Program-made: the position numbers and the translations under genes
Notes under the pieces: generated by a model
Told to the model about the DNA's origin: nothing
The model's input: the letters and a program-made list of their open reading frames with translations, nothing else
The model's database searches: none
Shown: positions 4,650 to 62,072 of the stretch, piece by piece
How the letters are laid out: each line of letters begins with the position of its first letter
Numbering within the stretch: position 1 is the stretch's first letter
DNA from: Psammoneis japonica
Lineage: Eukaryota
NCBI GenBank assembly: GCA_008632985.1
Contig: QPGO01000126.1
Coordinates: 1-64,000 of the forward strand
Direction of reading: 5' to 3'
DNA length: 64,000 nt

Positions 4650-5034
4650 TCAATCTTTCTTCGTCATAGTGCGCGGCGGCTGGGTGTCGTCGTAGTACTA
4701 GATAGTGTTGGGATTGGCGTTTTCCCGTACATCAATCACAGCATCCTCGCGTGGCAAATTGACACTATAGTCACAATAATTCTGTTCTCCCATCGTGTGT
4801 GTTCCCAACAAGAGTGAGTGCTCATTGATACGAGGCAATTGTCTCGTCACGGGCAACCACTGGCAAGTCAGCAACGCGGCCATTCCAATGCGTGCGTCAT
4901 GACGGCAATGTCGTACAAGTAAGGAGTGTTTTTCTTCCAAATCTTTCATTCGGCATCAATCATGCGCTCTTCCATGGCTGTCGCAAAGTCAACCTTGTCC
5001 TTGAGGACTGTGCCTGAGCGGTAGACGACGACAT
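4650..5034 (-). pseudogene. N-terminal fragment of RBBP4/MSI1, disabled; copy 2
   Basis: LTCQWLPVTRQLPRINEHSLLLGTHTMGEQNY; direct repeat of 690-1094 with frameshifts. Confidence 0.8.
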
Positions 5035-5799
5035 GGTGGCTGTTTGTGTTGTATTGATTAGGGAGAGTCTATGGTACAGTACCGTATTGGAAGGGGTGGG
5101 TCTGGGGAAATGTGTGGCGGAAGGGTCGCGCGAAGCGCGCTTTAGGGGATGGAGAGAAAAAGGGTGGGCCGAGAGTGCGGACAGACGGTTGAGAGGAGGA
5201 GTTGGTAACAGCAGGGTGGCGGAGTAGAAGGGCTTGATACGTAGAAAGATGGGTGGAAAGAGCAAAGCCGAAGTTAAGACTGAGGATTTGGGAGGCCCAA
5301 AGCGATGGTGTTGAGGTGTGGTGTGAAGAACCGAAGCGGTCTTGAGAGAGTTGTTTCCAGGCCGAGTTGGAGGAGGCAAGGAGATCAGAGGGTGTGAGGA
5401 GTGAGTTGGTGCAGGCGGAAAAGGTTGTTGCAAAAAAGATTTCAGAAAAATGGCATGCAGCCATTGCATTTGGCACATTTCAGTGCAGAAAATCACATGT
5501 GTAGAAACATGCTTGAATCTCAGGAGCGACAATGACAAGACATGGACACTGCTTTCAGGAGGTCTGATTGTCATGCAAGAGTCTTGGTTTGGTGAAAAAC
5601 AGAGTTGCCATTGTGTTGAAGTCAAAAAATGCGTCTTTTCCATTTTTGAGTGGCAAAACCCATGCTTTGATCTTTGTTTGTTAAAGACACCTCCTCTGTT
5701 GCCTGCCATTGCTGGTGTCTCTCTGTCACAGATGCGAAAAGTGCTCACTGTCTTGGGCATGCTGTTTGTGTGATCTGTGGCAAGTGATGTCAGTCGCAA

Positions 5800-7200: not shown

Positions 7201-8234
7201 TGCCCATTTTCCTGATTGCCAACATCAACTCTGGGTGCAATCGAAAGTGGAGTGACAGCTGCAGACCATTGAATGACTGATTGAATGGAGTGCATCCAGA
7301 ACAGACCAGCCCCTCTCATGTTTCTGTTTGTGAGCCACCGCGCCAATTTGCAGTGGTGTCCATGGTGAAAAAGCCTTGGTTGTCTTGGCATGACATGGAT
7401 CACAAGTGCAATGATGATGCAAAAAGTGTTTCTTGCCTTGGCGGATGAGAACCTGCAACCCCATCGTCAAAGCATCAAAGTGCAGGCCTGGAGGCCTGGT
7501 TGAGGGTTGAAGCTGATTGGGCCGGCAAATTGTGATTGAGTCGAGTGTTGAAGCACAAATGGATGAGAACCCTGGACCCATGACCCGCAAGGGTCAGCAA
7601 GAACACTCTCCAGTGGAGAGCAGCTGGCTGGACAGAGAGAGAGAGTGGTGCAAAATTTCTGCCAACGGAAAGTGAAAAGGATGGAAAAGTTGATTTTGGC
7701 ATGAAGAGAGTGTCTTTGCCACACTGCAAGTCGTGACATTGAAAGAGAGCAGTGAATGGATGGAATGCATGTGCAAATGTTTCACGTGCACACATGTGCG
7801 TGAGAGAGGACATCAGAAAATTAGAGATTTTTTTGGCGGGAAGCTGTTTTGTTGATCTTCAGGAATTCTGTGAGACAAACCAAGACAAAAACCTTCCGGG
7901 CTCAAGCAACAGATGGAAGATAGAAAGATCTCAATGGAGGATCTTAACATGAGTGTGCAGAGTTGATTTGTCAACAAATGTTTCAGAAAATTTTGATGAT
8001 CAACCAATCATCACCATGGTGAAAAAGAATGGCATGATGGTGCCAGAATGAAGAACAAACACAGAAAATCTCTGTCAGTCTTAACACAGCAATCAGCATT
8101 GTCTGACATCACATGAAAAGGATTCAAGGACACAGACCCATGCAAAGAGAACAAGCACCGATCACCTTGATCGGGCAGCTTCAACAGATGATTGAGGATG
8201 ACACAAAGGCTGGGTTTTTAGACCAACCTGACAA

Positions 8235-8730
8235 CCGCAGGGTGGCAGACCTGAACAGTGTCAGGCTGCATCAACAGAATGCTTGCATTCTGACATTCAG
8301 ATCAGACAAAATGAGGTGGATTGAGATGACAATCTCAGTCAACTGGATTGCTTGGATCACCCAGATCCAGCATGATTTGAGAGGGCAAAGGCCAATTTTT
8401 AGAGCAACCTCCTGACAATTGCAGGGTGGTGGACCTGAACAACATTGGGCCACATTGACAGGAGGATGCTTGCACTCTGACATTCAGATCAGACAAAACA
8501 AGGCTGGATCGAACTGCAATCCATGTCGACTGGCTTGCGGAGAGTGCCCGGATCCAGTGCAATCTTAGAGGCATCTGAGGCGGCGGGAACATGATCCCAA
8601 ACCATGCCAACAGCAAAACCCAACTGCAATGCTCGCACTTCAACAACATCTGTTGAAGTCAACGAAGACAACACAGGTGCATCACACACAATTGGCTGGC
8701 TTGCGGAGATTCTCTGGATCCAGCACAACG
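8235..8730. repeat. Degenerate tandem repeat, period about 190 bp
   Basis: ctgacattcagatcagacaaaa at about 8290 and 8477; tggcttgcggaga...ggatccag at about 8531 and 8697. Confidence 0.6.
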
Positions 8731-9400
8731 CGTGATCAACAGACAGATTGTGGTGGCCAGATCAATTGATCAATGCCAAACCACAGGACAATCAGCACCA
8801 CATCCAATGCATGGGCAATTGCAAGAGGCACACCAATCAGTGGAAACAATTTTTTCAGTGTTGTCGGCCCACATGTCGGGTTGACGCAACTGATCCCATT
8901 GTCACCGGAAGTCTGCCAAACACAATGAGGGGAACTGGGGGGTGGCCTCTAGTCATCGTCCATCTGTCTGTGCTGCCTTCTGCTGTGCGCTTCCATCCCA
9001 CGGTGACTCCTCCAAGAGTTCAGCCACCCACAAGGTGTCCTCTCCTTGTGCTGGGCCCACCATCTTGGCACCAACAAGAAGCAGAAAAAGGCATGGAGGA
9101 TTTGTGAAAAAAAAAATTCTCAGCTTTCTCATTGTGCAAAGTCCAAAATGGAAGAGTTCTGGGTTCTGCAATTCTTTAAGAACAGTTGCAAGATTTCCTG
9201 CACTCAATTGGCACTGTCAGAACAACGTCAATGGAGACCAACATTTATCAAAATGCTTGTTGTTGTTCTCTTGACATGAAAACGAGTGGTTCATGGTGCT
9301 CTTGTGCAAGCACAGCAGAGCTGCTGGTTGTTTGCAACATTGTCAGCATTGTTGAGCTCCCGAGAAATGAGGCGGCACTTTTGGTCAACCTGTCACGTGA

Positions 9401-9423
9401 TGTGTGTGTGTGTGTGTGTGTGT
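9401..9423. repeat. (TG)n microsatellite
   Basis: Direct reading. Confidence 0.9.
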
Positions 9424-9758
9424 TGCACAACATCACACAAAAGAGAACTCACAATGAGAATTGCCACAGCTGAAATGGTGTGGCGCTTGTGATTCATCTT
9501 GACGCTTGTGATTCATCTTGTTTTCAGCATGCATGGCAGGTGCTGAACATGGCAGTGTGGAGCAGTGTGCCTTGGCATGTGCTCACTTCAGACAAAATGG
9601 TGTGGGGATGGTTTCCCATCAGTGCTGGTTGAACAGTGGGGACCGGTTGCCACGGCGACGAGACTGGNACTTGCGATGGTTCTGGTGCCTCGTGCAGCCA
9701 AACGTTTGGCTTCACGCATGCTTGATTTAAAGACTGGTTTGAACATGGCCAACCAGTT

Positions 9759-12700
9759 TCAAATCCAGTGAGCAGAGTGTGACAGGTGTTCTTCTGCCGA
9801 ATCAAGGAGGAGCGCCTTGTCTCTCGCAAGACAATCGTCTGTACGAGAACAAATGGCCTTGACCTCTGCTTCTGCGTCTCGTCTTTGAGACGACATCCTC
9901 GTTTCCGAATCGTGCCCGTGCACAGCGTCGTTGTGAGCATCCCAGAGGTCCCACCACTGCTCCCACATGAAATTCCCAATGGTTGCAGCCCAATCCAGCC
10001 GTTTCTGTTGATCTGAGAGAGTCCGACAAATGCCGCTCGACGAAAGGTGAGAGGTTTGCGTCGCATTCCACTGGACAGAAAAACGGCCATCAAACAACTG
10101 ACGCCAACCCATTTCCCCTTGGGAATGAAATGCGGGCACGACGCTGTGATGAAATTGTTCCGAGTGCAAAAGCTCGCCTCGAAACCATGCTTCAATGGCC
10201 AAAATTGTCAAGTCTCGTAAGGAAGGAGACATGTGAATGTCATCGCACTTCTTGCGCAATCCTTGTAAAAATTTTCTGTGCCAGGCTTCATCATGAGGGC
10301 AACGGAGAATGTGATCTCTGTCTTCCATGGGGTCCTGACAGTGAATGCAACAGTCCGGACGTGTCGGATTGCATCTGTGTGCAATCTTGTTGGTGGGCAG
10401 AAGATCTTGAACCAGCTTGACGGTGCTGACTTTTCGACGAATGTTTCGCGACATCAATTTCGAATGAACGTCCCAATCAATCGATGCGCACACTTCGTCG
10501 GACCAACCATGTTTCTCTTTCATGTGCTGAACCAGTGCGGGACTCGACGCCTGACATCTGACAACCGGCTTGCATTTGGAAGAAACAGTGGCTCCTTGAA
10601 GAAGCAGGTTTGCTCGGCAATGAGGCATGCGGGGAGCAGCAAGAGTGTCGCCCGTAAAACGACCTTGGAATTGTCCAGCGAGTCTGTCGGCATGCATGTT
10701 CAACTTCGCCGCTTGAGAGAGAGAGTCAATGGGAAGGACATCGTCTTGGTGTCCCTTCGCCCAGTGAATCTCGACTGTGGGACACGACAGTTCATCAGTG
10801 CGTGTTTCTGACAGCTGTCTTGGGGAATGGAAGACCTCATTGACAATGTCCCAATCCGGAGAGAGAGCATTGGCAATGTGAAAACGCCAGTGGAAGTCTC
10901 CTTGGATCTCCTCCTCATCAGCAGGATGAGGAATCACCTGGAAATTTGAGATGGTGCGAATGAGAGCGGAATTGTCGCAATGCAAATCGGCGCCGCTGAC
11001 CTGTGTAGAACAACAGTCTGACAATCGGATCAGAAAACGGAGAAAAGACAGCAGACCGCATGCCTCCGCACGACAAGACGATGGGCGAAAACCGAAAACT
11101 GGACCGGCACAATCCACAAGAGGAACCCCGTCGATCGCAATCGTCCACCCGAGTGCACCTTTGAAATGGAGGACCGAACCGTCGCTAGCTGCTGAAACCT
11201 TGTGGGTGACGAGGAGCTCAGCGATTTCAAACACAGACCGATGCAAATGCAATTCTTCGAACAGAGCAGATTCCCACCGAGGAAGAGACCGCAGCACAGC
11301 CAAGAAATCACTCGGGACGGGAGGGACTGTCGGCAAGGATGCTGGAGAACCGAATGACTTGATCCGCCACAAACCGGTTGTAGTCGTATCCACTGGCACA
11401 GGGGAAGCAGCTGGGGAAAGATCTGGAACATTTTCCAGAGCGGCGAGAGTCTCCGCACAACCTTGGTGCACTGGGAAAATCTCGAAACCCGAATCTCCAC
11501 GAACACACAAGCAATCCTCGGAGGATTCGTAATGTGCGACATGTGTCATGCGCATTTCCGTGGCTGGCACAACCCATTGACCTAAAGGGTGTCGTAGATC
11601 GAGCGAGTCTGGTTTGCAAAACAAGGAACAGGCTCGACGCCACTGTTTCCATGCCCGAGCGGATGGACGTTGTTGTTCGATGGGATTCAGAGTGCTGCGA
11701 CTGCTGAGAAGGAACGATCGGCCGTTCACTTTAAAGGGATCGAGCGAAAAACCATCCGGAGAGGCAACATCTGATGGAGTCAAAACATTTGGATAAAGAC
11801 GACAGCAGTTGACCCACCGCATCTCACGATTGCTGAACGCCTGGGATTGAAGCACAACGTCCATGATGCATTGGTCGTTGTCTCGCTGGAGTGGAAGCAC
11901 TCCAGCATGATCACAATCGATGGTGGCATCGATCCGGGCCAAGAATGAACGCAAGGACATGAACCATTTCGATTCGGAATGAGGGAGCTTGGCATGGACG
12001 TCCTGAAGAAAACTCACACCTGCACCAAGCTGCAACTGAATCCATGATGCAGCGATTCGCGACAACACCTGAGGTTGCCCAGAGCCCCGCCAGTGGGTGA
12101 GAAACTGCAGAACCTGCACTGCACCCTGTTCCACGTCTAAAGACCTGAAACAACCGCCTCCCAGGGAATGAGGTCCGAAGAGGACATCACGTTTCGAGTT
12201 CCGATTGCACCCGCATTTGGCAAAAATGGCACGCATGGCCTTCCTCTGTACTTCGAGCAACTCTTTCTCCTTGAAGTGAGTGTTCGGGAGAACATGCGTG
12301 GTTGCAGACAGATGACAAGCAAAATGGTGAGTCCATGACTCATGTCGATCTAAAGGACAAGACCAAAGGAACAGGGCAATGCCGTCACTCTTTTGTTTCA
12401 GAGCCGAGTGCTGGGTCTTTTGAGTCCCCGCTGGAGCTTTGCAGTGTCCAAGTGTCGTGTGAGAAGAGCATGCGGACAATTGTTTGCTTGACCCAGTCGT
12501 GGCACGGTCTGCAGAAGAGATTTCAATGTCAATGTCCTCGTTGTGGGGTCGAAGGCAAGGTTCGCCGTCCTCTGCAAACATCCATTCGACAGCGTGGAAG
12601 GAGCATTTGGGCAATTCTAGCTCGTGGCCAGCCGCGCTCAAAAGGTCGCACCACAGTTGATCATCTTCCTGCATCTTGAAAGCCAAATCGAGGATGCAAG

Positions 12701-15599
12701 GTTGAGGACTCGAACAAAAATCGTTCACCTGCTTGGACGTGTCGTCGACATGTCCTCCGTTGAACATCTGCAGCGAGAGGGAGTGATCTGGGGACTCGAA
12801 AAATGCACCATGTGCCCATTGATCGAAGATCTGGAACAGACTGTTGCAAATTTGGTTCCAGCAAAATGGAGAGTTTCCACTGCCCTGTCCTGTTCCGCAA
12901 ATGGGGAAGTCATCAGAGTGAGAACAAGAAGTCAGTGACAGGCCCAGCACTGTTCGCAACCAGCAGCAAGCCTTGTGAACAGTGGCGCCAGCGACTTGAG
13001 TGACTTCTTTGGGCATGCCATTGCTGCGGCTCTCAATTGCAACCAGAGCGGGAATGTTCCGATCGCAACACGATGTGCAATCATCATCGCTGTGAATGGC
13101 AGATTTTCGGGAGGCACGGCTGATCTCGAGCATGAGTTCTTCAAGGCACACAGGAGTGTTGGCATTTAAGAAGGCGCGAGTGCCGTAGATCCCCGAGTTG
13201 TGTGATTGGCGGTGTTCCATGTTTTGGGCCAGAGTGCGCCACTTGACGCTCGAGATTAATTGAAAGTCAGCTTCGTAGATGTGGATGACACGGAGCCGAT
13301 GCATCTTGTTGTTGCCTGGCTCTTTAAAGATCATCACATTGACAACATCTTGCCAGCGGTGAAAGGAGCATCCCCAACGAAGGGCACAGTTAAGCAGATT
13401 CAACCTGATTTGAATGAGGGATTGTTGAACTTCATCGAGGGCCTCACGTTCAGGGGTGGGATTGCCTTCGGAATCAGTTGCATCTGAGAACCGATGAGGA
13501 GCATGCATTGCTTTCCAATGACCTGGGTGGAGGCCGGAGCAAATGGACGTGGAGGTGGATTCTTTCCAACGTTTTATTTTTCCTTCGAGATCTGATGCAG
13601 ACAGAAGATTCGGTGCAGAGACTGGGGAACGGTGACGCAAGTGGTTGATGAAAAGGGCAGTTGCTTCGTTCAAAGCCGACGTGTCACACTCACCATCAAG
13701 AACAAGATCCGCCATGACAGTGTCACCTTCACAGCCTGGGTCCATGGATGACGGAGGTGCCGTTGGAGGGGTGCCTTGTGCCTGACCGAAGTGTTTTTGA
13801 TTGCGTTGACGGAGAGCAGTGGCTGCCTCTTCCGGAGCGTCAACAGTGGTCCAATCTTGACATTCTTTGGGAGGAATGGAAGGATTGCTGGGAACTTGGA
13901 CACTCTGAATGCCTGTGTCCCTCTGAGTGTGGCATGAGTCAATCTTCCTGAACAGCTTTTTCATCTCTTCTGCCTTGCGGATGTTGCGCAAGACAGTTGC
14001 CTGTTTACGTGACTCCTCAGTGCCTTCCAGATCGAGTGCGGCTGTCCTCTCGGAAACTTCCCTTTCGCGGTGTGCGACACTGTCAGCCGCCAATCGCTTG
14101 CAATCGTCTTGAGCAGCGCGTGGCGCCTCTTGACAACCTTGTGAAGTGTCGGGGACAGTGAAGGATCCACTCAGTTTGTCTCGCATTGCTCGAATCTGTG
14201 ATGCACAGTCCAATTTTGTCCTCATCATGGATGCGAGGTGGGAAAAGACACACACCCGGTACCTCAGGTCTGAAAGTTCAACCGACCAGTCGGGTTCGCG
14301 ATGAGTTCGGCATTTCTTGGCAGCAGAAAGAGAGAACTGCAGGAGATCACGGTCCAACCGTTCAGCCAGAGCATGATCTGGAGCATCAAGTTCCAGTGGC
14401 TGGAAAGAGTGTTGCAACACCGAACGACTCTGAATCATTGGGCCGATTGCCTGTAGACAAGAGGTGAGCTGTGGTTTAGACGTAGCCTGAATGTCCCTGA
14501 AGGATGCCTTGGGCAAATTGACAGTCGGGTTGCCGAAAAGAGCTGCGGTGTCAAAGTCCACGAAGTGAGCACAATGATCAGAAGTGACTCGATGTCCAAA
14601 GGCTTCACATCCACCGAAGCGAGCTGCAGCAAGAGCGCCAGGAGAGGCTGGTGCGCAGTCAAGACGCCGGGAACCTCTGGCACATGTGGAGAACTCAGTG
14701 TCGCCCATGATGTTAAACAGGACGTCAGACAAATTGAAGCGCTGGGCAACGGCAGCCAAAGAGTCAGTGTCACAGGTGAAATCAGTGTCAAAGTCCCCAA
14801 AAATGATGACTTCTCGATTGGAATCCGCCAGAAAATCCTGCAAGACTCGGGATGAGTCTGTACAAAACGCCTTCCTGGGATCGAGTGACCGGCGCCCCAA
14901 TTGCCGGAGGAGGGCCAATTGTTGAGCGTACGCCGTTGTCTTCCCTGGGTGTTGTTGGTTCTTGGCGCAAACTCGACAGCAAGAGACAAACACAACTTGG
15001 CGTCCATTCCCACCGTCGAAGACTTGAATTGACCACCTGCCGAGTGGGTCGGATTCTTGAGTCCGGAAGCGAGCAGAAATCGAATTGCATGACAACAAGG
15101 CCGTTCCACCCGGTTTGCATTGCATTGCAAAGGTGGTGGAACTGCTTGAAAAGGCAGACCGCCCATGATGTAAAGACTTGGAAACAGCAGATCCACACAC
15201 GGACAAAATGTCGAATTGGGTGGTGTCGAGGCACACCTCCGAGATGCCAATGACATCGGCTTGAATTTCGGAGGCGAGTTGACAGCACTCGTTCACATCA
15301 CCGCCACGCTTGTCGAATTTACAACCGTTGGCATTGAAGGCGTAAAGGCGCGCATGGTGAGAAAGCTTGGGCCGGAGTTCGTCGCCCACAGGTGCGTTGG
15401 TCTTCAGTCGAGAAAAATCCATCCGACGATCTGTGGGAGGGTGGTGACTGCGTCCGTCTAGGATGTTCTGCCAAGCAAGAGCTGGATCTTCAGCAGAAGG
15501 CGAACGACTCATTGTTGGGCCATGCTCCTCCGAAGAGAAGACTGAGGCTTGGAGCACTGCATTGACTTGGTGTTGGTTTGGAAGGAAAAACTCCGGCAT
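9759..15599 (-). CDS. Retrotransposon ORF2: APE endonuclease, reverse transcriptase, RNase H and C-terminal Cys/His knuckle; probably non-functional
   Basis: APE: N.NG, ISE, GDF, RLD, SDH. RT: KEPGN.K.HRLRVIHIYEAD, SCCDR, GTGQGSGNSP, GHVDD. RNase H: ASDGS, RAEA, CDN, KGHQD, N.HAD. Knuckle: CIHC..EDRDHILRC. The reading frame continues past the TGA at 9759 to about 9670. Confidence 0.9.
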   Translation of the reverse strand: MPEFFLPNQHQVNAVLQASVFSSEEHGPTMSRSPSAEDPALAWQNILDGRSHHPPTDRRMDFSRLKTNAPVGDELRPKLSHHARLYAFNANGCKFDKRGGDVNECCQLASEIQADVIGISEVCLDTTQFDILSVCGSAVSKSLHHGRSAFSSSSTTFAMQCKPGGTALLSCNSISARFRTQESDPLGRWSIQVFDGGNGRQVVFVSCCRVCAKNQQHPGKTTAYAQQLALLRQLGRRSLDPRKAFCTDSSRVLQDFLADSNREVIIFGDFDTDFTCDTDSLAAVAQRFNLSDVLFNIMGDTEFSTCARGSRRLDCAPASPGALAAARFGGCEAFGHRVTSDHCAHFVDFDTAALFGNPTVNLPKASFRDIQATSKPQLTSCLQAIGPMIQSRSVLQHSFQPLELDAPDHALAERLDRDLLQFSLSAAKKCRTHREPDWSVELSDLRYRVCVFSHLASMMRTKLDCASQIRAMRDKLSGSFTVPDTSQGCQEAPRAAQDDCKRLAADSVAHREREVSERTAALDLEGTEESRKQATVLRNIRKAEEMKKLFRKIDSCHTQRDTGIQSVQVPSNPSIPPKECQDWTTVDAPEEAATALRQRNQKHFGQAQGTPPTAPPSSMDPGCEGDTVMADLVLDGECDTSALNEATALFINHLRHRSPVSAPNLLSASDLEGKIKRWKESTSTSICSGLHPGHWKAMHAPHRFSDATDSEGNPTPEREALDEVQQSLIQIRLNLLNCALRWGCSFHRWQDVVNVMIFKEPGNNKMHRLRVIHIYEADFQLISSVKWRTLAQNMEHRQSHNSGIYGTRAFLNANTPVCLEELMLEISRASRKSAIHSDDDCTSCCDRNIPALVAIESRSNGMPKEVTQVAGATVHKACCWLRTVLGLSLTSCSHSDDFPICGTGQGSGNSPFCWNQICNSLFQIFDQWAHGAFFESPDHSLSLQMFNGGHVDDTSKQVNDFCSSPQPCILDLAFKMQEDDQLWCDLLSAAGHELELPKCSFHAVEWMFAEDGEPCLRPHNEDIDIEISSADRATTGSSKQLSACSSHTTLGHCKAPAGTQKTQHSALKQKSDGIALFLWSCPLDRHESWTHHFACHLSATTHVLPNTHFKEKELLEVQRKAMRAIFAKCGCNRNSKRDVLFGPHSLGGGCFRSLDVEQGAVQVLQFLTHWRGSGQPQVLSRIAASWIQLQLGAGVSFLQDVHAKLPHSESKWFMSLRSFLARIDATIDCDHAGVLPLQRDNDQCIMDVVLQSQAFSNREMRWVNCCRLYPNVLTPSDVASPDGFSLDPFKVNGRSFLLSSRSTLNPIEQQRPSARAWKQWRRACSLFCKPDSLDLRHPLGQWVVPATEMRMTHVAHYESSEDCLCVRGDSGFEIFPVHQGCAETLAALENVPDLSPAASPVPVDTTTTGLWRIKSFGSPASLPTVPPVPSDFLAVLRSLPRWESALFEELHLHRSVFEIAELLVTHKVSAASDGSVLHFKGALGWTIAIDGVPLVDCAGPVFGFRPSSCRAEACGLLSFLRFLIRLSDCCSTQVSGADLHCDNSALIRTISNFQVIPHPADEEEIQGDFHWRFHIANALSPDWDIVNEVFHSPRQLSETRTDELSCPTVEIHWAKGHQDDVLPIDSLSQAAKLNMHADRLAGQFQGRFTGDTLAAPRMPHCRANLLLQGATVSSKCKPVVRCQASSPALVQHMKEKHGWSDEVCASIDWDVHSKLMSRNIRRKVSTVKLVQDLLPTNKIAHRCNPTRPDCCIHCQDPMEDRDHILRCPHDEAWHRKFLQGLRKKCDDIHMSPSLRDLTILAIEAWFRGELLHSEQFHHSVVPAFHSQGEMGWRQLFDGRFSVQWNATQTSHLSSSGICRTLSDQQKRLDWAATIGNFMWEQWWDLWDAHNDAVHGHDSETRMSSQRRDAEAEVKAICSRTDDCLARDKALLLDSAEEHLSHSAHWI

Positions 15600-15624
15600 C
15601 GTGAAGTCCGACGGAAAATTGATG

Positions 15625-17365
15625 TCAGCGCAAGTGGTGAGTGGGGCGAGGAAACAATGTCAGGAGGTCGCCTGATTTCTTGAGGGGGTGGAGGCGGCGA
15701 AGTCCAACCCCTGCCCAAAAATCCGTCTCCCGTTCTTTGTGGTCGCCAGGGCGTTCAGGAGTTTCCATGTTGTTGGGGCGTTTTCTGGCTGAACTCTGAA
15801 CAGGTTGGTTTGCTTGAAGCAGTTGAACAATTTGGTTCATTTGTTCCTGCACTGCAGCCAACTGTTGGGAATGCTGAAACTGCATGGTGGCCATGTCCTG
15901 GGAGTGTTGTTTGGTGTGCTGACGCAAGGGAAGAACTTGTAGACGACTGAGTCGCTTGAGCGTGCGAATGCAGAGGGGACGAGATTCCTGGGCATCCAGA
16001 ACATCCGTGAGGAGTTGCCTGGAAGGAGGGCCTGGGGGCGAAGATTTGCGGAGGGACTGACGGGCTTGGAGAGTGGCCTCGACCAGGGGTGCCACCACGA
16101 CCATGGCCTCTGCCCGCGAACTGTGCCGGAGGAGGAGGACGGTTTGACCTCGAGGCCTGGGTGTCCGTCAATGGAGATGCGTCTGAGAAGGTCAGGGACT
16201 CCAAACTGCGGATGCTCGCAGACACTGTGGATTCACTGGCTTTGGACTGCTCGTCAAGCACACCAGACATGTGAGGTTGATCGGGAAATGGAGGAGACGG
16301 CCAAGATTCTTTGGGGACATTTGGAATTTGATCCATGATGCATGTAGAGATGCCAGCACGGGAAGCTTTGAAATCCGTACGTTTGACCAACACATTGCAC
16401 CGACCAGGGGTGGCACTAGACTTGCAGATCTCTTTCACTCCGGAGATGGCCCTGATGTGGTTTTCCAAATAAAACATCACATCCGGGGAGGTGCACAACA
16501 GCGGAACCACACAAGCATCATGATTGCGACAAGCTTGGAGTTTGACGGCGTTATAGAAGGTGAGTGGCGACATGTGCCGTGTCTTCGCCATGACAATGTG
16601 TGTCGGCAGCTTGTTGGAGGCGCACAGCAAGGTTTTTCCTGCAGTGCGGCAATCGTCTTGTTGCACTTCGATGGCATGAGTGACGGTGCAAAGGGGAGGA
16701 GCCAATTGATCGTTGTCGGCACGAATGGAGGCAGGTGCGAGACGAAATTTCGGCATCTTGGACTTGAATTCGCCCAGATCTTTTGCAAACAACTTGGCAG
16801 CTTCGTCGATCGGAGCATGCTTGGATGGGGCAGCGACACAATGTGCCGGAGTCGCCGTGTCGATCACTGACTCATTCCAGCAGTGGCGCTTCAAACCCAT
16901 GTTGTTTGAGTCTAAAATGCTCTGAACATGAGGATGAGAATGGATCTCTCGAAGGGGGACTTTGGTTAAAATGCGGTGGCACAGGCGGTGGACGACAGGG
17001 CGTTTTTCTCCACTGCGAGTCGCAGAAATCGTGAAGTGATGTTCGTGCTGAAGGGTTGCAATCCATTCTGCAATGTTGACATTGGTGATCTGGTTGTTGT
17101 GGTTGTCCAGGATCTGAACATCGTTGTGACACGTGAACAGGATTTGTTGCAAAACTTGAAGATGAGCGGTGGCAAGGGTCATTGGCTTGCACGTCGCCTC
17201 CGGGCCACGAATGTCAACGCGCAGGGTGATCTCCACACAGGGAGGCTCTTTCGGTTTAGAAGAAGGTTTGTTGGATGCGTGATCAACAGTGATGTCGTCC
17301 GCCATGTTGATGTCGTTGTCATCATTGGGGGTGTGGCTGCCGTCAGCGACGGAACGAGACGCCAT
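15625..17365 (-). CDS. Retrotransposon ORF1 (probable frameshift near 16.0 kb)
   Basis: Long ORF directly upstream of ORF2 on the same strand; GRG-rich segment and a Gln-rich coiled coil in the overlapping 15625-16104 frame. Confidence 0.65.
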
Positions 17366-17449
17366 GGTGTGTCGGCAGTTCTGCGGAGAGCGTGGTGCTA
17401 AAAACACGCAGGCATGTTCAGTGCAAGCAATCGCAGAATTGTCAACAAC

Positions 17450-19700
17450 CATGCCTCAGAAGAGGTTGGGGCAGCGGTGCTTCTTGTTGAGCAGTGTTGG
17501 CAATGACATCGTCCCTGCAAAACATGCGCCATCATGTGAGGGAGTCTGGCACACTGGAAGGGTGCACCACAAGCAGCAACATCCCAGTGCACTGCTGCCA
17601 GTTGAAGGGAGTGGCAAAGTTGGGATCATTTTTGTTGCAGAGAAAACTGGCACCATTGAGTGCACTGCAGCCAACAGAATGTGGGGTGTGGGAGGTTCTG
17701 TGATTGGCCCTGGGAAGCCAGGTCTGGCAGATCTGCTTTCAGCTTCTGTGGCAAAATGTGGAAGGGCTTGGCAATTTGATGGTCCAACACTCTTGATGGA
17801 GCAACCTTTGTGAGAGTCTCTGACTCCATGGTGCAACACAGGCAGCTGGAAGGGACAAGACAGTGGGGCAAGTGTTCTCATGGTTTGCATGCTTGGATTT
17901 TGATCAAATGCCTGTGGAGTGCATTGCCATGGATGTGCTTCAATGTTTGGTTGCCATGTGAGCTGGATGGCCCCAGCTGTCAGTGACCATGATGATGCAG
18001 TCAAGAAACCACTGCATCTGAGCTTGGGGAATCATCACACATGAGTGTCAGAATGAACACCTGAGAAGGCCCTCACTTGGTTTGGGTGATGGTCAGTCTG
18101 CAAGGTGCTCTTGAGCTGGCAGATGCACCTGAGGATCTGGATCATGATTGTTTCTTTGAAAAGTTTTGGAGCTGAGATCCTGCAACAGCTCAGTGCCAGG
18201 GTGGTTTCTTGGCCCAAATGGCAGTGGACAAAATCATCAATGTGGGCCTCTGCTGCTTGACAGTTGAAGTTTGCTGGTGGGCAACATTCAATTTAAGAGA
18301 GTGTTTTTGAGCACTTGCAGATGGCAGGCTCATTTTTGGTCATTCAAGCTCCACTGCACTGCTTCTGTGAAAAGCCATGTTGTGTTGTCTAACTTGGAAT
18401 CTTCTGAAGAGAAGAAGATGGGAAAGGGGTTCACACTCTCTGTGTGTTGGCTTTGACAAAGAAACAGAGTTTTTCAGTCCTTGTTTTTATGTGGTGGTTG
18501 CCATGATGCAAGAAGCATGGTTTGGTGCACACAGCTGCATGGCGTTGTTTTGACAACATTGTGACAAATTCAAAGGCATTTTTGCAGCATGGGCATTTTT
18601 GAAGTGGCAATGCTTGGGTCTTTGCCTGATCAATTTCCAGTGCTGATTGAACAGCCCACATGTTTCAAGAGACAAAAAGCCATGTTGCCACCCCCAAGCA
18701 GCTTTTGCAGATGGAAATGAGAGACAAGAGGAGCAGCAATGATGATGACAGTGGTGGCCACAAAACAACAGCAGTGGCAGCGGCAACAATGATGACAATG
18801 GCAATGTGAACAAGAGTGGCAACAGCAATTGCAGCAATGGCAACAATGCCAGCTCTGAGCAACTTGCATTTCAAGAGACAAAAATCCATGTTGTGAGGGC
18901 TTGAGCAGCTTTTGCTGGCAGAAAAACAAGAGACAAAAATGGCAGCAATGACAAAAGCAGCAGCAAGGGCTGCAATGCTGGCAACAGCAACAACAACAAT
19001 GGCAACAGCAGCAAGCTGAGGCACAGCTGCGCCACACTCATTTGATCTCCAGACACCCCAGCCACCAGGAGACCACTGTTTTCCTCTGTGGCTCATGAAG
19101 CGGCAACCCAAGGGTTGCTTTCACACATGCCTCTCATGTGCTGGCATGCATGGGCATGAGGCAGAGACTCTCCATTTGGAACTTGCTCGACACAGATTGT
19201 GCTTGTCAGGCAGCTCCAAAACATCACGCTGCTTCATTTCTCAAACATGCAAAACACTTCATTGCCAAATTTGTGCACATGACTCCTGAAAATGCCACCA
19301 ACAAACATTGCGATCAACGTCACTTTTCGCAACCACCGCCAGCTCTGCGATTTCTGTGCCAGGCTTTTGTGTGGATTTCTGCGTGAGCATGGCTCCTCAG
19401 CATCATGGTTGTTGAAGCAATTGCAGAACCAGCTGACAGCTGGAAAGACAATTTGACTTCCTAAATTTTTTTCACTGGAAACTTCGTGCGTGCAACACGC
19501 ATCATCACCAAAAATCGGCAACATGACGGTGTTGCATTGTCGTGACAACAGCAACAACAGCAACATGTCCTCAGATGTTTGAGCATTGCAGACATTTGTT
19601 TTGGTGCGTTTAGGAACGGTTTCAGTCATGAAAGCCCCCGTGAGAAACCTCCGTTTGAAAGCAAAACGGCAACCAACACCGAGCTCTGTTTTTTTTTCCC
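17450..19700. other. Heavily mutated, low-complexity repeat relic (TpA and CpG depleted)
   Basis: No TA found by eye between about 18490 and 19460; GCA/ACA-rich runs; internal duplication tttcaagagacaaaaa at about 18663 and 18869. Confidence 0.6.
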
Positions 19701-20024
19701 GACCACTGTTTGATGCGTTCGATTGTCAAACGATCAAGAGTTTGTCCGGGGGACTTTCTTGACATGTGTGTGTTCCAAACAGTGCAATTGATTCATTTGT
19801 CAAGTGTCCATTGCACAGGCGTCCCCTCAGAGCATCTGAAAAGTGTCGTCATCGTCACAGTGCGTTGCATCGCGCAAATCGCAAAAATTGCACGACCGTC
19901 GACTGTCCGACATTGCAATGCTGCGCGCGACTTCTGCGCACACCTTTCCGATGATTGTTCGCATCCCGCCCAGAGCATCGAAGATCCACCAACATCTCAC
20001 TTGCTTCACAATCATTGAAAGACA

Positions 20025-21395
20025 ATGACGGACTCCAGTTTGACGTTCCAGTTGATCTACAGTGACGGATTCAGTGGCAATTCGAAAGAGTTGCTCTGGG
20101 AATTTTACTCTCTCGCTCTTGCTCCATTCGCTTTCGGTGCTCCTGCCGAGCAAGTCCAACTGTTTCTCGACAATGGGCTCCTTGACTTCTCTGACGATGT
20201 CCTTGACAATGGCGTTCGAACTGTGGGGAGTGGCAGCATCGAAACCCTGCCATGTTTCCCGGAATCTCATGAACAGCATTTCAGAACGGTCCACGGTGCC
20301 GCAAGGATCGTGGAGGATGCAAAGAGTCTTCCCTCCTGTTCATTTAGAATTGTGTCGGGCCATGGCTTCAGTGGGTTCGCTGGTGGTCATGTTCAGTTTG
20401 GAACAAGCATTTGCCATTTTGCCAATTTTGGATCAGCAGCACCCCATTTGACAATTCTCGACATGTGCAATTCCGCACATGCGCTTGCTTCCTTCATGGG
20501 AAATTTCCCACTGGAGAATCCGCGGCGTTTCAACAGCAAACACAGGGCAAAACATGTCTTTGTCAAGGACCCAAATCTTCCCGTCGCTTGCGATTCGAAC
20601 CCACACGTTTGCGCCTTTAGGATCGGGGTTGTTGGACAACACCTCAAAGAACACTTTATCTTAAACGATGACGTGCCGGGCATGTCTCTTCCTGTGGGGG
20701 ACTCCGTCACGTCCAGTGCAATTGCTGCAGTTGGTGAACATGTGCAACAACCCATTGACCGTTGTCACTCATTGGACGATTTGTTCATCGCCAAGTGCAG
20801 TGACAACCTCAAAACGGTTTGTCTCGCGTCAGATCACACACTCAAGCCATTCTGTAATCTCCAAAAGCTCCAGCAGCTTGTTGATGAACACAAGATCCAG
20901 ATCAACACGACGGTTTTCGATTGTGAAATGTTCAATCGACAAAACGAATGGTTCCTGACCTTTGAGCTGGCTGTGAACCTCTCTGTTGACCAGGAAGACA
21001 TGGCCAAGGACATTGTCGATTTCATCATTTCATGGATTGTCTCATGGCACAACAAACACCCCAATTCTGATGTGGAGTCTCTGGAGGCACAGGATGCCTG
21101 GACGAAGCTTGCCCGAATGATGGGCCCCCATCAGCAAATGCTGACTCATGTCCACATTGGACAGAATGAAACAACCCAACAAACATGTGCATCTGCCGAA
21201 GATGAAGGCATTGAGGTTGAATCATGGGTGTTGTCTTGCGAGTCGCTGACTGGCTGCATCGGCCCCGTGAGTCGGAAGATTGAAGCGGGCAGTTTTGAGC
21301 CATTTGTGGAAGAAGACGATGATGTCAAGGAGAAGAACAAATCCCTTGCCAGTCAAAAGTCTGGTGACTCAGGTGTTGTTCCTGCTCTTGTTTGA
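20025..21395 (+). CDS. Hypothetical protein with a possible clan CD (caspase/CHAT-like) His-Cys dyad; TpA-hypermutated
   Basis: 456-aa ORF; IVSGHG and LTILDMCNSA motifs; very few Tyr. Confidence 0.45.
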   Translation: MTDSSLTFQLIYSDGFSGNSKELLWEFYSLALAPFAFGAPAEQVQLFLDNGLLDFSDDVLDNGVRTVGSGSIETLPCFPESHEQHFRTVHGAARIVEDAKSLPSCSFRIVSGHGFSGFAGGHVQFGTSICHFANFGSAAPHLTILDMCNSAHALASFMGNFPLENPRRFNSKHRAKHVFVKDPNLPVACDSNPHVCAFRIGVVGQHLKEHFILNDDVPGMSLPVGDSVTSSAIAAVGEHVQQPIDRCHSLDDLFIAKCSDNLKTVCLASDHTLKPFCNLQKLQQLVDEHKIQINTTVFDCEMFNRQNEWFLTFELAVNLSVDQEDMAKDIVDFIISWIVSWHNKHPNSDVESLEAQDAWTKLARMMGPHQQMLTHVHIGQNETTQQTCASAEDEGIEVESWVLSCESLTGCIGPVSRKIEAGSFEPFVEEDDDVKEKNKSLASQKSGDSGVVPALV

Positions 21396-22029
21396 TGTGG
21401 CGCCAGGGCCAAAAGCGATTTGACCATCAGACCGCAACGTGGGTGTCTGACACTGCGAGAAATCTGAAATGAATTCATTCCAATGAGAGCTGTCAGCACT
21501 CAATTGCATTGTTTCCATGGTCAATGCAAACAAAACACAAGTGCTTCAATGTGCTTTTAAACATCCCAGCTGTTTGGAAAGCCATTGTCCATCTGCTGTG
21601 TAGATCAGCATTTCTGTGCAAGATTCGGCACATGAATTCTGCGTGAGAAAACATTTCTTCTGACATCATTCTCATCATGTCATCAAGGCTCCCTGTTTCA
21701 CACCTGCAAGCCCCAAATGTCCCTCTTTTCACTTGCTGGCTTGCCAAGCTTGCTGTTCTGAGCAGTGACCTGATTGCTGTTGTTCCAGTGCTTGCAAGTG
21801 TGCAACCTGGTCAGCAGCTGGTGAAGACAAGATCCACATCCTTGGAAGCAAGATTTTCTCCCACAGATCTTGCGCCACCAACATCACATCCTGTTTTGAA
21901 TGTCGTGATCATGTTCTTTGCTGTCATGGTGTGCATGTTTTGCATTCTTTCCAAAGGAAAGCAATGACCTCCTTCCAGTGCAGCCCAATTTAGACCAGTT
22001 GTCTCCAGCGGGCATCGCTGCAAAGTGGA

Positions 22030-23920
22030 AGTGCTCTCACAATCTATTTCTAAGGGAATGACAACAACAATGGATGAGGATGACAATCTTTCCAAACAAA
22101 TCCTCGCGGAAATGGCACAAGCTGCGGGACTGCCAATGCTGTGGTTGTTGCGTTGCAATTGCATCTCTTGTCAAAAAGGACACCACAGCTGCGCCAATGC
22201 AAGAGAAATTCATTTGCACAAACTTCATGATTTGGTTCAGCTGCCACACAAAATTGGCTTGTTGCATCAACTTGGAGTTTTGAGCTTGGGGGTGTGCTTC
22301 AAGCTTGAGTGGATCCCCCCTGAAATTGGTCAGCTGCAGCGACTTGAAGAGTTGCACTCATCTTGCAACCCAATCATTTTGTTGCATTGCCCAGTGAAGT
22401 GTGCAAATTGAAAAGCTTGAAGGTGTTAAAATTGCTCAAATGCCATGGTCTTGAGAGTTTGCCTGTGGGAATTGGGCAGCTGAAGCAACTCAATGTCCTC
22501 AATCTTTGGGAATGTGAAAGTCTCAAAGAGTTGCCAATGGGAATTGGGCAGCTGAAGCAACTGAAAACTCTCAGCCTCAGCTGCTGCAGAAGTCTCAAAG
22601 AGTTGCCAGATCAGCTGTGGCAGTTGACAAACTTGGTGGAGCTGGATTTGCATTGTTGCAGAGCTCCCTGACTCAGTTGTCCCCTGAAATCGGACAGTTG
22701 CAGCAGATCAAGAAACTTTGTGGCAACTGCAAGAAACTCACGAAAGTCCCAATTGAGATTGGGAAGCTTTCATAACTGCAAGAACTCAAACTTTGTGACC
22801 ACTCCAGTGGCTTGGATGAGTTCTTGTAAATCGCCATGAGCAACTTGGTCAATCTGACAAGGTTGGATCTCAGCGGTTGTTCCGAACTTGTTGAGTTGCC
22901 TCCCAAGATGGGATTGCTCACAAAGTTGGAGTGCTTGGCTCTGGAGGGGTGTGAGCAGTTGACGTTGATTCTAAAAGGAAATCCTTGAGCTGCCAAGTCT
23001 TCATTGTCTCCACTTGGATGGTTGTTTGTTGCTTGCAATTGCTCCCAAGGACATTGGAGAAGCTTTGCACTCCATTCAAGATGTGCACATGCCAATGAAT
23101 GACCAAGATGAAATGGGTTGCCACACCCAAATGAACAAAGCAGGAAGACACTTGCTGCACTGCCACAATGTGCCAGCAGCTCTTTGGCCGCATGTCTTGG
23201 CAGGTCCGTGCAGCGATGAGAATTTCATTTTTTGGTTCCTGACAAACAATCTGGACTTCGTCAAGACAGGAGAAATCAAGGAACAAGCACCCTCGCATCA
23301 TGAGCAGTCAGTGGCAGTTCTCAGGTGAATGCAGGCAGATGTGCAAGTTTCAGTGCAACTTCTGATTGTTGTCCATCATCATTCCTTGCTGCTGGAGCAG
23401 ACACCATTCACAGATTGTGCCAGCAGCTCTGATGTGCCTGTGAATGCTTGGAGCACTTGTTGGGATGCGGTGCCCTTGACATGACATTGCACTTCATTGG
23501 TCCTTTTTGGAATGTTTCTTGGGGTGCAAATGCTGACATCGATGTGACTGGCCACACCCGTGGCCTGACTTTGACAAAAATTCTTGATCGCACACTGTCC
23601 TCTTGCATCTTGTTTGATCTTCAAAGGATGCTGTGACAGTTGCTGTCTTTGCTTGATGACAAAATGGAGCTCAAGAGGAGAGCATCACTGGCAGTTTCAT
23701 TCTTGGATCCCAGCATGAAGCATGACACATGTTTTTGCGACTTCATCTGGCTGCATCTTGTCCACTTCGGAATTGGGCCACTGCCGAGAATGGCGGTAGA
23801 GAGGCACATTCAATCCCTGGCCAAAATTGAGTGAGACAGCATTGTTGGTGCCCATGGTGTTGAAGTTGGCATCTGCAGTGGACATGACCAAGTTTGTGAG
23901 GCACAAAAGCGTCAGTGCAG
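22030..23920 (+). repeat. Segmental duplication of about 1660-3630 (LRR gene plus about 0.65 kb downstream)
   Basis: Homology continues past the stop, e.g. aaatggagctcaagaggagagc at about 3361 and 23662. Confidence 0.9.
22070..23286 (+). pseudogene. Degenerate paralogue of the LRR gene at 1702-2943
   Basis: Collinear nucleotide homology with frameshifts and stops; systematic TA->CA/TG and CG->CA/TG changes. Confidence 0.92.
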
Positions 23921-24865
23921 CACACCCCAAACAGCGGCCATTTGCATGAGACACCAGCGGGACAATGCAAACCGAGGCGTTTCTTGTGCCCCAATCACCA
24001 TCGCTGTGTTGTTTGCTCTGGGCACAATTCAGAGTAAAAAATTGTCATGTTCACCACAGACAGTGTCTTGTTGCAGTGCTGTCATCTTTTGATTGCAGAA
24101 ATCAGGCACTGGTCTGCACGTTTGGCACTGCTGGAAAAACTTGGGTGGCTGAGCAGTGCCCCCACCTTGCCGACAGACGAGGCCCAAGTCGGGTTGGATG
24201 CACTCTCCAATGAAAACGCAACAATGACTCCCATTGGAGAGTGCCCCATGAAGCGATTTCACCCCCATGAAGGATCTTGCCTTGCATTGGTGACTTTTTC
24301 AGATGCAATGGCAAGAAAAGCAGGAGCAAGGAAGTTCTTGTGCACAGTTGCTTGCATCTCAAGGGCTCTGGGTCCTCTTCCACACATCGACATGCCACTC
24401 TTTTGCACACTTGGAGGAATGCAAGGCAATGGATGCCTGTTGACAAATTGTGAAACATGCTCTGGTCACATTTCACTTTAACCGTGACTCTCTCAAAATC
24501 ATTGACACGTTGGCTGCCGTGATTTTGGCATTGTCACAGCTGGACACAACCACGCAAGTCCACAATGACGACTCAAAATTGAAAGAGACGCCGATTGGTC
24601 ATCTCAATGCCACTGCTCACTGGCTTTACACGCCTCTTGAGGTCTTTCAGGTCATTGCAATTGTCTCCGGAACCATTCACTCCATCCTGTGCGGAAATCC
24701 ACATTATGTTGACCCCAGTCAGACTGAGGCGACATTTTGGTGACGTGTCAGGCTCTCAGTCATGACTGATGTGCATAACAATTTTATTATTTTGGGGTTC
24801 GGTCATGCAATAATTGTCGTTATTATGGTTGTGGAACGTCATGATCAATTATAAAAAACGTCAGC

Positions 24866-27379: not shown

Positions 27380-27410
27380 ATGGCAAGTGGCATGGGGGAG
27401 ATAGCGACGG

Positions 27411-36690: not shown

Positions 36691-37267
36691 TGTTTTATCT
36701 GCTGTAACTATCTACGGTATGGCCACTTTTGCAGACGTAAGCGTTGAACTAGAAACCCCTAGTAATCACAAAGCAACGTGATGAATCGCACTGCCTGCGT
36801 TCAAGTTGAGACAAAAAACTTGCTTCAACAACAGCACGTCTGCGGGACAGCAGTCTCTCAGCTTATCATATATGGCGTCGTTGTCGTGGCTGATAGTTGC
36901 TCTTCCTGGCTTTGCCGGAGCTACCGTAAGGTGCGTCGTACGCATTCTTGGCTGCTGTCTGGTTCGCTTACTTTTCTTGTTTTCTCGACACTTCCAAAGA
37001 TCCTCCTTCTTTTTGACTCTTCTTTTTGTGATCGCTTGTTTTTCATGGGTAGTGGCGTCGTGGGACGTAGGCACGAGTTGAGCCGAGCCTGTGGCCTTTC
37101 TCAAAGCGCCATTGCAGCTCAAGTTCGTCCTCCAGGCGGGGCAAGAGTGATGGTAAAAAGAAAGCACTTTCCTCGGGGCGTCCGGCGTTTCTGCAGAAAA
37201 TTATCTGCGCTCGAATTCATCCAATTCGGGGCAAGCCTCAGACTTAGCTGGACGAGAGGTTTAGATG

Positions 37268-37770
37268 TGATGCATAGACTTGCAGTCTTGAGAGCCCTCA
37301 GCTCCAGTGCCATATCCGAAGGCATATTTATTCTTGCAAGGCTGGTGTCAAGGCACATTGACGATTCACCGAGAAATGTGTTTCCCTTTTGGGGAAAAAA
37401 GACTTGATTGCAGTACAGTTGTTGGCATATACCGTCTATCTCTCGCACAAATCCAAATTCCTTGGTTGGTTGCGATAAATATATCGAGGCGTTTGAAAGT
37501 AGAGCAGGTTTTGATTGAATTGATAAAGAATCCCACCTCTGTGCTGATTTGGTTTATCGCCAATGAAATTGGCATCCAAAGCCACGAGCTACTGGCAGAC
37601 ATTCTTCGTCACGCCTACCTCTGCCTTGACAAAATCGCTATCAAACAGGCACGGGTCCCCGAAACGCAAATAAAAGTACTCAATGCTCTCAGCAGAGCCG
37701 AGACATAAATGTCGGCTAGTGAATTCCACAAAGGAATCGTTTGAGGTGGTACCAAAACGGTAACCGAAAC
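37268..37770. repeat. Dispersed repeat, copy B (homologous to about 3655-4430)
   Basis: Same shared blocks as copy A, in the same orientation, with internal deletions. Confidence 0.8.
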
Positions 37771-62049: not shown

Positions 62050-62072
62050 CACACACACACACACACACACAC
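62050..62072. repeat. (CA)n microsatellite abutting the gap
   Basis: Direct reading. Confidence 0.9.

Follow-up and report, generated by a model that had tools for sequence, protein, structure and literature searches.

When only one copy of a duplicated gene has been riddled with mutations, what directed the process to that copy: its likeness to a partner or the place in which it lies? The question is raised by a window of 64,000 nucleotides (the whole stretch analyzed; positions 1 to 64,000 of contig QPGO01000126.1, assembly GCA_008632985.1, forward strand) from Psammoneis japonica, an apparent diatom. The window holds an intact leucine-rich repeat (LRR) gene and a dead copy of it that has lost the dinucleotide TA. 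We find that the erasure of TA is confined to discrete blocks of DNA and that homologous partners lying elsewhere are spared. The two loci, referred to from here on as A and B, are as follows.

1665..3653, + strand: locus A, intact LRR gene (open reading frame (ORF) 1702-2943, 413 amino acids) with 710 bp of 3' flank; the unmutated partner
22035..23949, + strand: locus B, TA-erased and CpG-decayed dead copy of A

The ORF of locus A matches LRR_14 (E 1.7e-27), LRR_8, and other families in Pfam. Homology between A and B starts 37 bp 5' of the A start codon and continues through the coding sequence (CDS), 440 bp of intergenic DNA, and ~270 bp more. The two loci are 75.1% identical over 2028 columns by blastn (1665-3653 against 22035-23949, gaps counted), and a MAFFT alignment has 1506 of 1891 ungapped columns identical (79.6%). 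B has no promoter. Read in the frame of A, it contains two stop codons together with insertions of +2, +2, and +1 that shift the frame, and B is therefore a pseudogene. The ratio of observed to expected dinucleotides (O/E) is 0.05 for TA in B (seven TA in total) and 0.25 for CG. In A, TA stands at 0.53 for the entire locus, at 0.26 for its CDS, and at 0.98 for its 3' flank, and CG at 0.90.

We determined the fate of each TA and CG of A in the MAFFT columns. None of the 69 TA is kept in B: 32 read CA, 26 read TG, and 11 read otherwise. CG fared somewhat better, with 19 of 93 kept, 31 read as CA, and 24 as TG. B has six alignable TA (of its seven), and these face CA (3), CG (2), and TG (1) in A. 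Transitions are found at 33 of 69 T within TA compared with 40 of 456 other T (Fisher p 6e-14), and at 27 of 70 A within TA compared with 33 of 394 other A (Fisher p 1e-9). Expressed as shares, 39-48% of TA sites but only 6-11% of sites in other contexts had undergone transition, and a T or A was 5-6 times likelier to change inside TA than outside it; these changes are fixed differences between the loci and not de novo events. Loss of TA in B is equally complete in coding (21/21) and noncoding DNA (48/48), and all eight tyrosine codons of A are altered (to C, C, H, G, H, H, N, and H), so that B retains no tyrosine codon. Further, the CA and TG outcomes are interleaved along B (30 runs against 29.7 expected, z 0.08), and a runs test over these 58 sites found no clustering of hits on one strand. 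Both strands were hit, without one-strand tracts.

These results bear on an initial annotation of this stretch, which had described a directional change of TA to CA or TG in B on both strands and in coding as well as noncoding DNA. The five pairs of short strings that it quoted from the two loci are all present where it had placed them, and the directional change is borne out by the 58 of 69 sites altered in this way with none kept. The pairwise alignment that it had suggested, comparing the fate of TA with that of T and A in other contexts, gave the 5-6-fold difference reported above. Its statement that only the copy inside the transposable-element domain was hit holds for the TA-poor block and agrees with our finding of no similar loss in A, the 3' flank of which stands at 0.98. 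That the intact copy keeps its TAs holds for this flank and less well for the locus as a whole (0.53), the CDS being TA-poor (0.26).

The fate of CG in B has a familiar counterpart. Conversion of 55 of 93 CG to TG or CA, like the CpG decay seen in most of the TA-poor DNA, is the footprint expected of 5-methylcytosine deamination in silenced DNA, and we take it as only an indirect sign of methylation.

Locus B does not stand alone. A two-state segmentation of the window called TA-poor DNA in four blocks, one of which surrounds B.

5301..24700, unstranded: TA-poor block with B; 89 TA in 19.4 kb, TA O/E 0.07, CG O/E 0.58 (uneven); edges at ~5275 and 24705
46401..47700, unstranded: TA-poor block; TA O/E 0.05; edges at 46399 and 47732
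48601..52900, unstranded: TA-poor block; TA O/E 0.06, CG O/E 0.30; switch at 48548
57201..64000, unstranded: TA-poor block reaching the window end; TA O/E 0.04, CG O/E 0.17
47710-48520 (approximately), unstranded: TA-normal, AT-rich island of 0.8 kb between two TA-poor stretches; TA O/E 0.82, GC content 0.39
24845-27376, + strand: intact Crypton-like ORF of 844 codons; NDC10_II (E 1e-32) and GCR1_C

TA O/E is 0.04-0.07 in the four blocks compared with 0.61-0.73 in the remaining DNA. The edges are sharp: TA spacing switches within less than 100 bp and without a gradient. At the edge at 57203, for example, TA occurs every ~10 bases up to the edge, and the next one lies at 57886, after a gap of 683 bases. 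At the right edge of the block with B, the Crypton-like ORF begins only 140 bases past the limit and keeps many tyrosines (TA O/E 0.30). The combination of NDC10_II and GCR1_C is the architecture of CryptonF transposons, as described in passages of PMC3212892. The island at 47710-48520 could be a young nonautonomous DNA transposon that was inserted after the erasure. We note that an imperfect inverted repeat of ~60 bases bounds it, with the left arm at ~47650-47710 and the right arm at ~48520-48570, and that at one site a TA in the right arm corresponds to CA in the left. Judged from the sequence of these borders, the process appears to respect sharp limits, and adjoining erased DNA or sitting within it seems insufficient for erasure, at least for recent arrivals. 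Such limits are compatible with bounded chromatin domains or episodic activity and, equally, with the targeting of discrete inserted units.

The repeat content of the block bears on the last of these possibilities. We used contigs from three sequencing runs of one source sample to assess contig cover and summed word depth, both of which are used qualitatively here, as depth does not equal copy number. On 5001-25000, 1583 contigs match at 80% likeness or more, of which 244 at 99% or more; because related contigs are many and near-exact ones few, much of the block is repeated. Summed word depth reaches 1000-1200 at 5001-6334 and 300-860 over the retroelement described below, and that of long near-exact contigs is 56-63. 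Two bins at about single depth, 20342-21008 (55.7) and 23677-24343 (78.1), are TA-erased too. An ORF spans 20019-21392 within the block. A Pfam scan took in 102 of the 106 ORFs that were 130 amino acids or longer (the four that overlap the N run at 61827-62049 were left out), and a second scan covered 103 ORFs of 75-129 amino acids in TA-poor DNA outside the retroelement and B. Among the ORFs of TA-poor DNA, these scans returned no match above the gathering threshold, the sole match being NICE-1 (E 8e-4), below the cut-off.

B might have been mutated as a component of a mobile or foreign unit that is itself targeted, such as a gene fragment that transposons captured or ferried between them and that is recognized by small RNAs directed at the unit, and not through its chromosomal position. 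The abrupt edges of the block are what unit boundaries would give. Its left edge coincides with the start of the high-depth repeat (the bins at 5001-6334, with joints at 5043-5434), and a contig of the source sample terminates at 24707, at its right edge. B itself starts 37 bp before the start codon and is devoid of a promoter, and summed depth over it is above the two-copy level. Against such a unit, we found no long terminal or inverted repeats round B and no terminal repeats at the ends of the 13.3-kb interval that follows it (see below), and the flanks of B have no Pfam match above the gathering threshold. The stretches of about single depth beside B are erased too, and the block forms a patchwork whose pieces differ greatly in CpG decay and are all TA-erased (CG O/E is 0.0-0.3 in some parts, 0.25 in B, and 0.80-0.84 in the retroelement). 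We therefore regard a targeted mobile unit as an unlikely explanation, albeit the strongest competitor to block membership.

The one transposable element documented in the TA-poor DNA, at about 9669-17455, offers an independent view of the process.

9669..17455, - strand: retroelement of the long interspersed nuclear element (LINE) type inside the TA-poor block; TA erased, CpG kept
9762-15659, - strand: LINE ORF2, open frame of 1966 codons
15758-17455, - strand: LINE ORF1-like frame

The LINE ORF2 has 55 homologues at E<=1e-10, many with Exo_endo_phos and some with RVT_1 or zf-RVT, and two of the homologues carry the names of the diatoms Epithemia and Fragilaria. Despite these homologues, the 1966-codon frame has no Pfam match at E<=1e-3. 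A tblastn search of the window with seven LINE relatives found no second LINE fragment. To use the relatives as an outgroup, we aligned ORF2 with 25 of them and examined the 31 columns in which at least 70% have tyrosine. These columns now read C at 17, H at 4, Y at 3, F at 4, and W at 1 in the LINE, compared with retention of W at 29/30, H at 18/19, and D at 36/38 control columns. About 90% of the conserved tyrosines are thus lost, and the tyrosine content is 0.36% compared with 3.0-3.7% in the relatives. Conserved leucine columns show five changes of Leu to Pro and three of Leu to Ser, which fits hits on the antisense strand. TA O/E in the LINE is 0.11-0.12, and CG O/E is 0.80-0.84. As TA is erased while CpG is near intact and a frame of 1966 codons is open, TA erasure and CpG decay are separable processes, and TA erasure is the faster. 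On a simple exponential in natural-log units, a rough reckoning that assumes steady rates, the LINE has gone through ~2.3 units of TA decay and little CpG decay; for B, TA decay exceeds 3.1 units and CpG decay amounts to 1.6.

A further alternative is that the changes arose before integration, in an RNA or cDNA intermediate and not in chromosomal DNA, for example by A-to-I editing of the kind performed by adenosine deaminases acting on RNA (ADAR) and subsequent reverse transcription. A 5' U/T neighbor is a known ADAR preference according to the Discussion of a recent preprint (Mettrop et al., bioRxiv 10.64898/2026.01.13.699255, 2026), and the LINE shows a sense-strand bias of A to G, with tyrosine changed to Cys 17 times and to His 4 times. 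However, the two strands of B were hit about equally (32 CA and 26 TG), with the outcomes interleaved and noncoding DNA included, and B includes intergenic DNA as well as a part that is read from the opposite strand. The Leu to Pro and Leu to Ser changes point to antisense hits in the LINE also, and unrelated adjoining pieces of the block have all been erased. An RNA intermediate is, in our view, highly improbable.

The direction of change in the LRR pair needs separate consideration. We sought a close LRR relative as an outgroup and obtained 864 proteins at E<=1e-3 among 8000 scored candidates; because the best of these is just 37% identical, single A/B sites cannot be polarized in this way. 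The asymmetry between the loci is, however, pronounced: TA in A faces CA or TG in B at 58 sites compared with 4 in the reverse direction, and the numbers for CG facing TG or CA are 55 and 4. TA and CG in A both converge on CA and TG in B, and no single process acting on A yields such a pattern. Loss in B would account for it by two types of transition, both known; gain in A would require that the same dinucleotides changed in opposite ways and that stops arose in an ORF that is intact. Further, B is the outlier in composition, with a TA O/E of 0.05 in a surrounding 19.4 kb at 0.07, compared with 0.53 in A and 0.98 in its noncoding flank.

Reversed polarity, in which CA and TG were ancestral and A gained TA and CG, draws what appeal it has from the missing direct outgroup for the pair. 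It would call for C-to-T change at CpA and T-to-C change at TpG within one sequence, and the stops then expected from CAA, CAG, and TGG are not seen in the intact ORF of A. The TA level of A is no higher than that of other genes, the entire 19-kb block round B is TA-poor, and the outgroup test of the LINE gave TA loss. We find this alternative barely credible. Overall, four indirect lines agree that B lost TA and that A did not gain it, which gives this direction strong indirect support; for the LRR pair itself, we infer polarity from indirect outgroups.

If TA was lost from B, was B chosen for its likeness to A or for its place? Three further duplicated pieces in normal DNA speak to this point.

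37264..37766, + strand: piece C, matching A 3652-4424 in three blocks; normal DNA, TA O/E 0.61
745..1103, + strand: left copy in a pair of 360-bp direct repeats flanking A; normal DNA, control duplicate
4704..5043, + strand: right member of the same pair; normal DNA, control duplicate

The homology of B to A stops at position 3653 of A, and that of C starts at position 3652, in the same order and orientation. Past this break, no homology of B or C was found (local alignment scores 13 and 10, shuffle maxima 14 and 15). Outside TA and CG sites, divergence is 9.6% between A and B in noncoding DNA and 7.9% between A and C. Given the shared break point and the similar divergence, B and C are best read as the two halves of a single A-like copy, now 13.3 kb apart. 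We note that the intervening DNA (23950-37263) contains the Crypton-like ORF and several ordinary-looking genes and that its first 750 bases are TA-poor. In the reliably aligned blocks, C keeps 12 of 21 TA, with five changed to CA or TG compared with one change in the reverse direction, which is not significant. Retention thus differs between B (0/69) and C (12/21) with a Fisher p of 1e-9. The two halves would have the same age and the same partner and differ in place and in fate, a contrast that supports place over likeness better than the A-B comparison alone. The 360-bp direct repeats, which are 88% identical, keep 4/6 and 4/8 of their TA, symmetrically and without directional bias. They lie 3.6 kb apart and bracket the intact LRR locus and a neighbor, and the parts of A that B and C match all fall between them. 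Because A, C, and the 360-bp repeats are spared, pairing of duplicates is unlikely to be the trigger.

The initial annotation had reached for the same conclusion. The two duplicated pairs that it offered as controls, at 690/4650 and 3655/37268, exist as 745-1103/4704-5043 and 3652-4424/37264-37766, so that its coordinates were slightly off and its observation that TAs are retained there stands. Its "TE domain" (transposable element domain) round B is documented in part, by the LINE and by no other TA-poor ORF with a Pfam match above threshold. The proposal that location and not pairing is the trigger gains from the sparing of A, C, and the 360-bp repeats; the spreading of silent chromatin that it invoked is unsupported, given edges of less than 100 bp, the TA-normal island, and the spared Crypton-like ORF.

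A homology trigger could still be imagined, as in repeat-induced point mutation (RIP), set off by the LRR duplication, with A kept clean by selection against lineages in which A was mutated or by an asymmetry between the partners. The duplicated part of B (~1.9 kb) is long enough for known pairing systems, and RIP leaks into flanking DNA, as reported in passages of PMC7296669. However, selection would not protect the noncoding 3' flank of A, in which TA O/E is 0.98, and C and the 360-bp repeats are unmutated. The direction of change is opposite to that of RIP, TA being lost and not gained. Nor do we see same-strand clustering (z 0.08), although RIP mutations cluster on one strand according to the same source, and a single-copy target is mutated in the alga Bigelowiella natans (Mettrop et al., preprint cited above). 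We consider a homology trigger very unlikely.

We next turn to the TA that survive. The 127 residual TA of the TA-poor DNA are distributed over RTAY, mixed, and YTAR contexts (R, purine; Y, pyrimidine) as 8, 54, and 65, compared with 387, 673, and 172 in normal DNA (chi-square p 1e-26). Their contexts also differ from those of CA and TG in the same TA-poor DNA (p 2e-14), which newly created TA would be expected to mirror. Seven of the eight RTAY survivors are in the young LINE, which taken alone already shows the context trend (p 1e-5). The 16 tetranucleotide ratios fit a product of per-strand factors set by the base 3' of the adenine, in the order T > C > G > A, and the excess of Tyr to Cys over Tyr to His in the LINE fits a preference for TAY (p 0.007). 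On these counts, the putative eraser prefers TA followed by a pyrimidine, leaving survivors that are mostly Y-TA-R.

Taking the evidence together, we consider it fairly probable that TA erasure is addressed by block membership and not by homologous pairing and that it reflects a deaminase-type process in a silent block. B would be a promoter-less dead LRR duplicate in a discrete block that is rich in repeats and probably both silent and CpG-methylated. In such blocks, A:T would be converted to G:C in place, at the level of DNA, and specifically at 5'-TA-3'. The A of one strand or the other, varying randomly between sites, would be turned into a base that is read as G, once per TA, the end products TG and CA being no longer substrates. 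The rate would be higher where a pyrimidine sits 3' of TA, and conversion would be much faster than CpG decay and near saturation. As the address would be the block and not pairing with a homologue, A and the half-copy C would be spared. The likeliest chemistry would be deamination of DNA adenine, yielding inosine, with an ADAT2/TadA-like enzyme brought to silent chromatin, in line with what has been proposed for B. natans. Of this scheme, the pattern of substitution, its confinement to blocks, the hits on both strands, the bias in context, and the independence from a homologous partner are shown, whereas we infer that the block is silent or methylated and which enzyme acts.

Several observations weigh against block membership as the address. 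First, the LRR pair has no true outgroup, the best homologue being that at 37% identity. Second, the CDS of A is itself TA-poor (0.26), so that a light or old hit on A is possible; eight other ORFs of the window range from 0.46 to 0.80, and the Crypton-like ORF is at 0.30. The low value may perhaps reflect LRR composition. The leucine codons TTA and CTA make up 5 of 83 in A compared with 49 of 374 in five other ORFs, T|A junctions across codons number 8 compared with 22.3 expected, and the tyrosine share of the A protein is 1.9% compared with a median of 2.5% in 40 homologues. The LRR core of A at 2001-2500, coding DNA without tyrosine codons, was also segmented as TA-poor. Third, C matches A only in blocks of 63, ~350, and 62 bp, and a length threshold for pairing would spare C too. 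Fourth, summed depth over B is 206-307 compared with ~57 for single-depth contigs, and more B-like or A-like copies may exist. Fifth, the edges are abrupt and not graded, and a TA-normal island lies inside TA-poor DNA, from which it follows that position alone is insufficient or that the process is episodic. Sixth, the strand predicted from context was the one hit at 16 of 24 informative A/B sites (one-sided p 0.076), which is a trend only.

Other features of the window are recorded here for completeness. A 1196-codon open frame at 53199-56786 (- strand), in normal-TA DNA between two TA-poor blocks, has seven RHS-repeat matches (E 5e-72) and DUF6531, an architecture of bacterial type. Two single frames fuse domains that are usually found in separate enzymes: that at 28632-30956 (+ strand) joins mandelate racemase/enolase N and C domains to a zinc alcohol dehydrogenase, and that at 31136-34219 (- strand) joins a methyltransferase, a 6-phosphogluconate-dehydrogenase-type NAD-binding domain, and a 2OG-Fe(II) oxygenase. 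Just 3' of the Crypton-like ORF, at 27406-28143, there is a tandem repeat with a 184-bp unit, of which two copies are 91% identical and a third has diverged. Within the last TA-poor block (57201-64000; 817 CA and 651 TG, with 223 N at 61827-62049), the plus strand is pyrimidine-rich at 59000-62050, with a GC skew of -0.36 to -0.51.

If block membership is the address, this locus is a natural experiment on the aiming of a newly recognized kind of targeted mutation, one set apart from the pairing-based RIP of fungi. A phenomenon known from a preprint on one rhizarian alga would be extended to diatoms, which are major marine primary producers, and the motif of TA followed by a pyrimidine could help to track down the enzyme. 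Some consequences are of a practical kind. Erased transposons evade domain searches, as did the LINE frame of 1966 codons; long false ORFs arise on all strands of erased DNA, since TAA and TAG vanish; and divergence is a badly biased clock for pseudogenes and transposons in these blocks. More tentatively, and with some doubt on our part, diatoms and chlorarachniophytes may share an old genome defense, in which a DNA adenine deaminase acts on T-A-pyrimidine at sharply bounded silent blocks of any copy number or origin and rewrites each TA there. If so, host gene copies that land in a block would be destroyed and their partners elsewhere would be safe, and the enzyme would amount to an adenine base editor of natural origin, specific for context and acting on genomic DNA in double-stranded form.

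How does the present case compare with known systems? The RIP of Neurospora and other Pezizomycotina resembles it in that repeats and dead gene copies are riddled with transitions in one dinucleotide context and their neighbors are spared. RIP turns C into T, for the most part at CpA, and thereby generates TpA, in contrast to the destruction of TpA seen here (TA O/E 0.05, with CA and TG in excess). It also depends on an enzyme of the RID/DNMT4 type and takes place before meiosis. As described in passages of PMC7296669, RIP mutations are of the C-to-T kind, target duplicates, and cluster on one strand; here, partners are untouched and clustering is absent.

The ADAR and ADAT2/TadA enzymes share with the present process an A-to-G outcome and a 5' U/T neighbor. 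ADAR favors a 3' G and works on double-stranded RNA, in contrast to the genomic DNA, the involvement of both strands, and the favored 3' pyrimidine seen here. ADAT/TadA enzymes act on A34 of tRNA, which follows the invariant U33, and the T-A context here recalls, by analogy, this U33-A34 pair. The methyl-CpG decay expected in diatoms offers a partial likeness. CpG methylation of diatom transposable elements, dependent on DNMT5a in Phaeodactylum, and relatives of DNMT4 in many diatoms are described in passages of PMC9998398, and the change of CG to TG or CA in B (55/93) and in most TA-poor DNA is of this kind. Such decay leaves the loss of TA unexplained, however, the LINE being TA-erased with a CG O/E of 0.80-0.84.

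The closest counterpart is that in B. natans. Full-text searches of the literature turned up no account of TpA being erased in diatoms, the sole relevant paper being the Bigelowiella preprint (Mettrop et al., bioRxiv 10.64898/2026.01.13.699255, 2026), and the text of that preprint, supplementary tables aside, yielded no mention of a 3'-pyrimidine bias or of diatoms. In the preprint, which counts 231 de novo mutations, TpA changes de novo to TpG or CpA in mutation-accumulation lines, in a single-copy silent insert from a nucleocytoplasmic large DNA virus (NCLDV) and in a virophage insert, at a rate ~1000 times background and in only some of the lines. Deamination of an ADAT2/TadA-like kind is proposed there, with editing of DNA by ADAT2 cited for amphioxus and for Trypanosoma. 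As reported there, the likeness is close: A:T changes to G:C only at TpA, giving TpG or CpA by strand, in discrete regions of an otherwise ordinary genome, with long-term depletion of TpA and enrichment of CpA and TpG in clusters that contain reverse-transcriptase and DDE genes. The target there, single copy and silent, shows that the process is not based on pairing; here, the homologous partners A and C are spared. The cases also differ. TpA is depleted only in part in B. natans, with a Rho TpA of 0.45 for the NCLDV region, and almost totally here (0.04-0.07), where CpG decay is added; the mutations there arose de novo in lines, and those here are fixed differences; and B. natans is a rhizarian with mainly viral inserts, compared with blocks of retroelement and repeats and a host gene copy in an apparent diatom. 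We place this locus with the TpA hypermutation of the Bigelowiella type, to which it adds a paired-locus test of targeting and a flanking-base preference.

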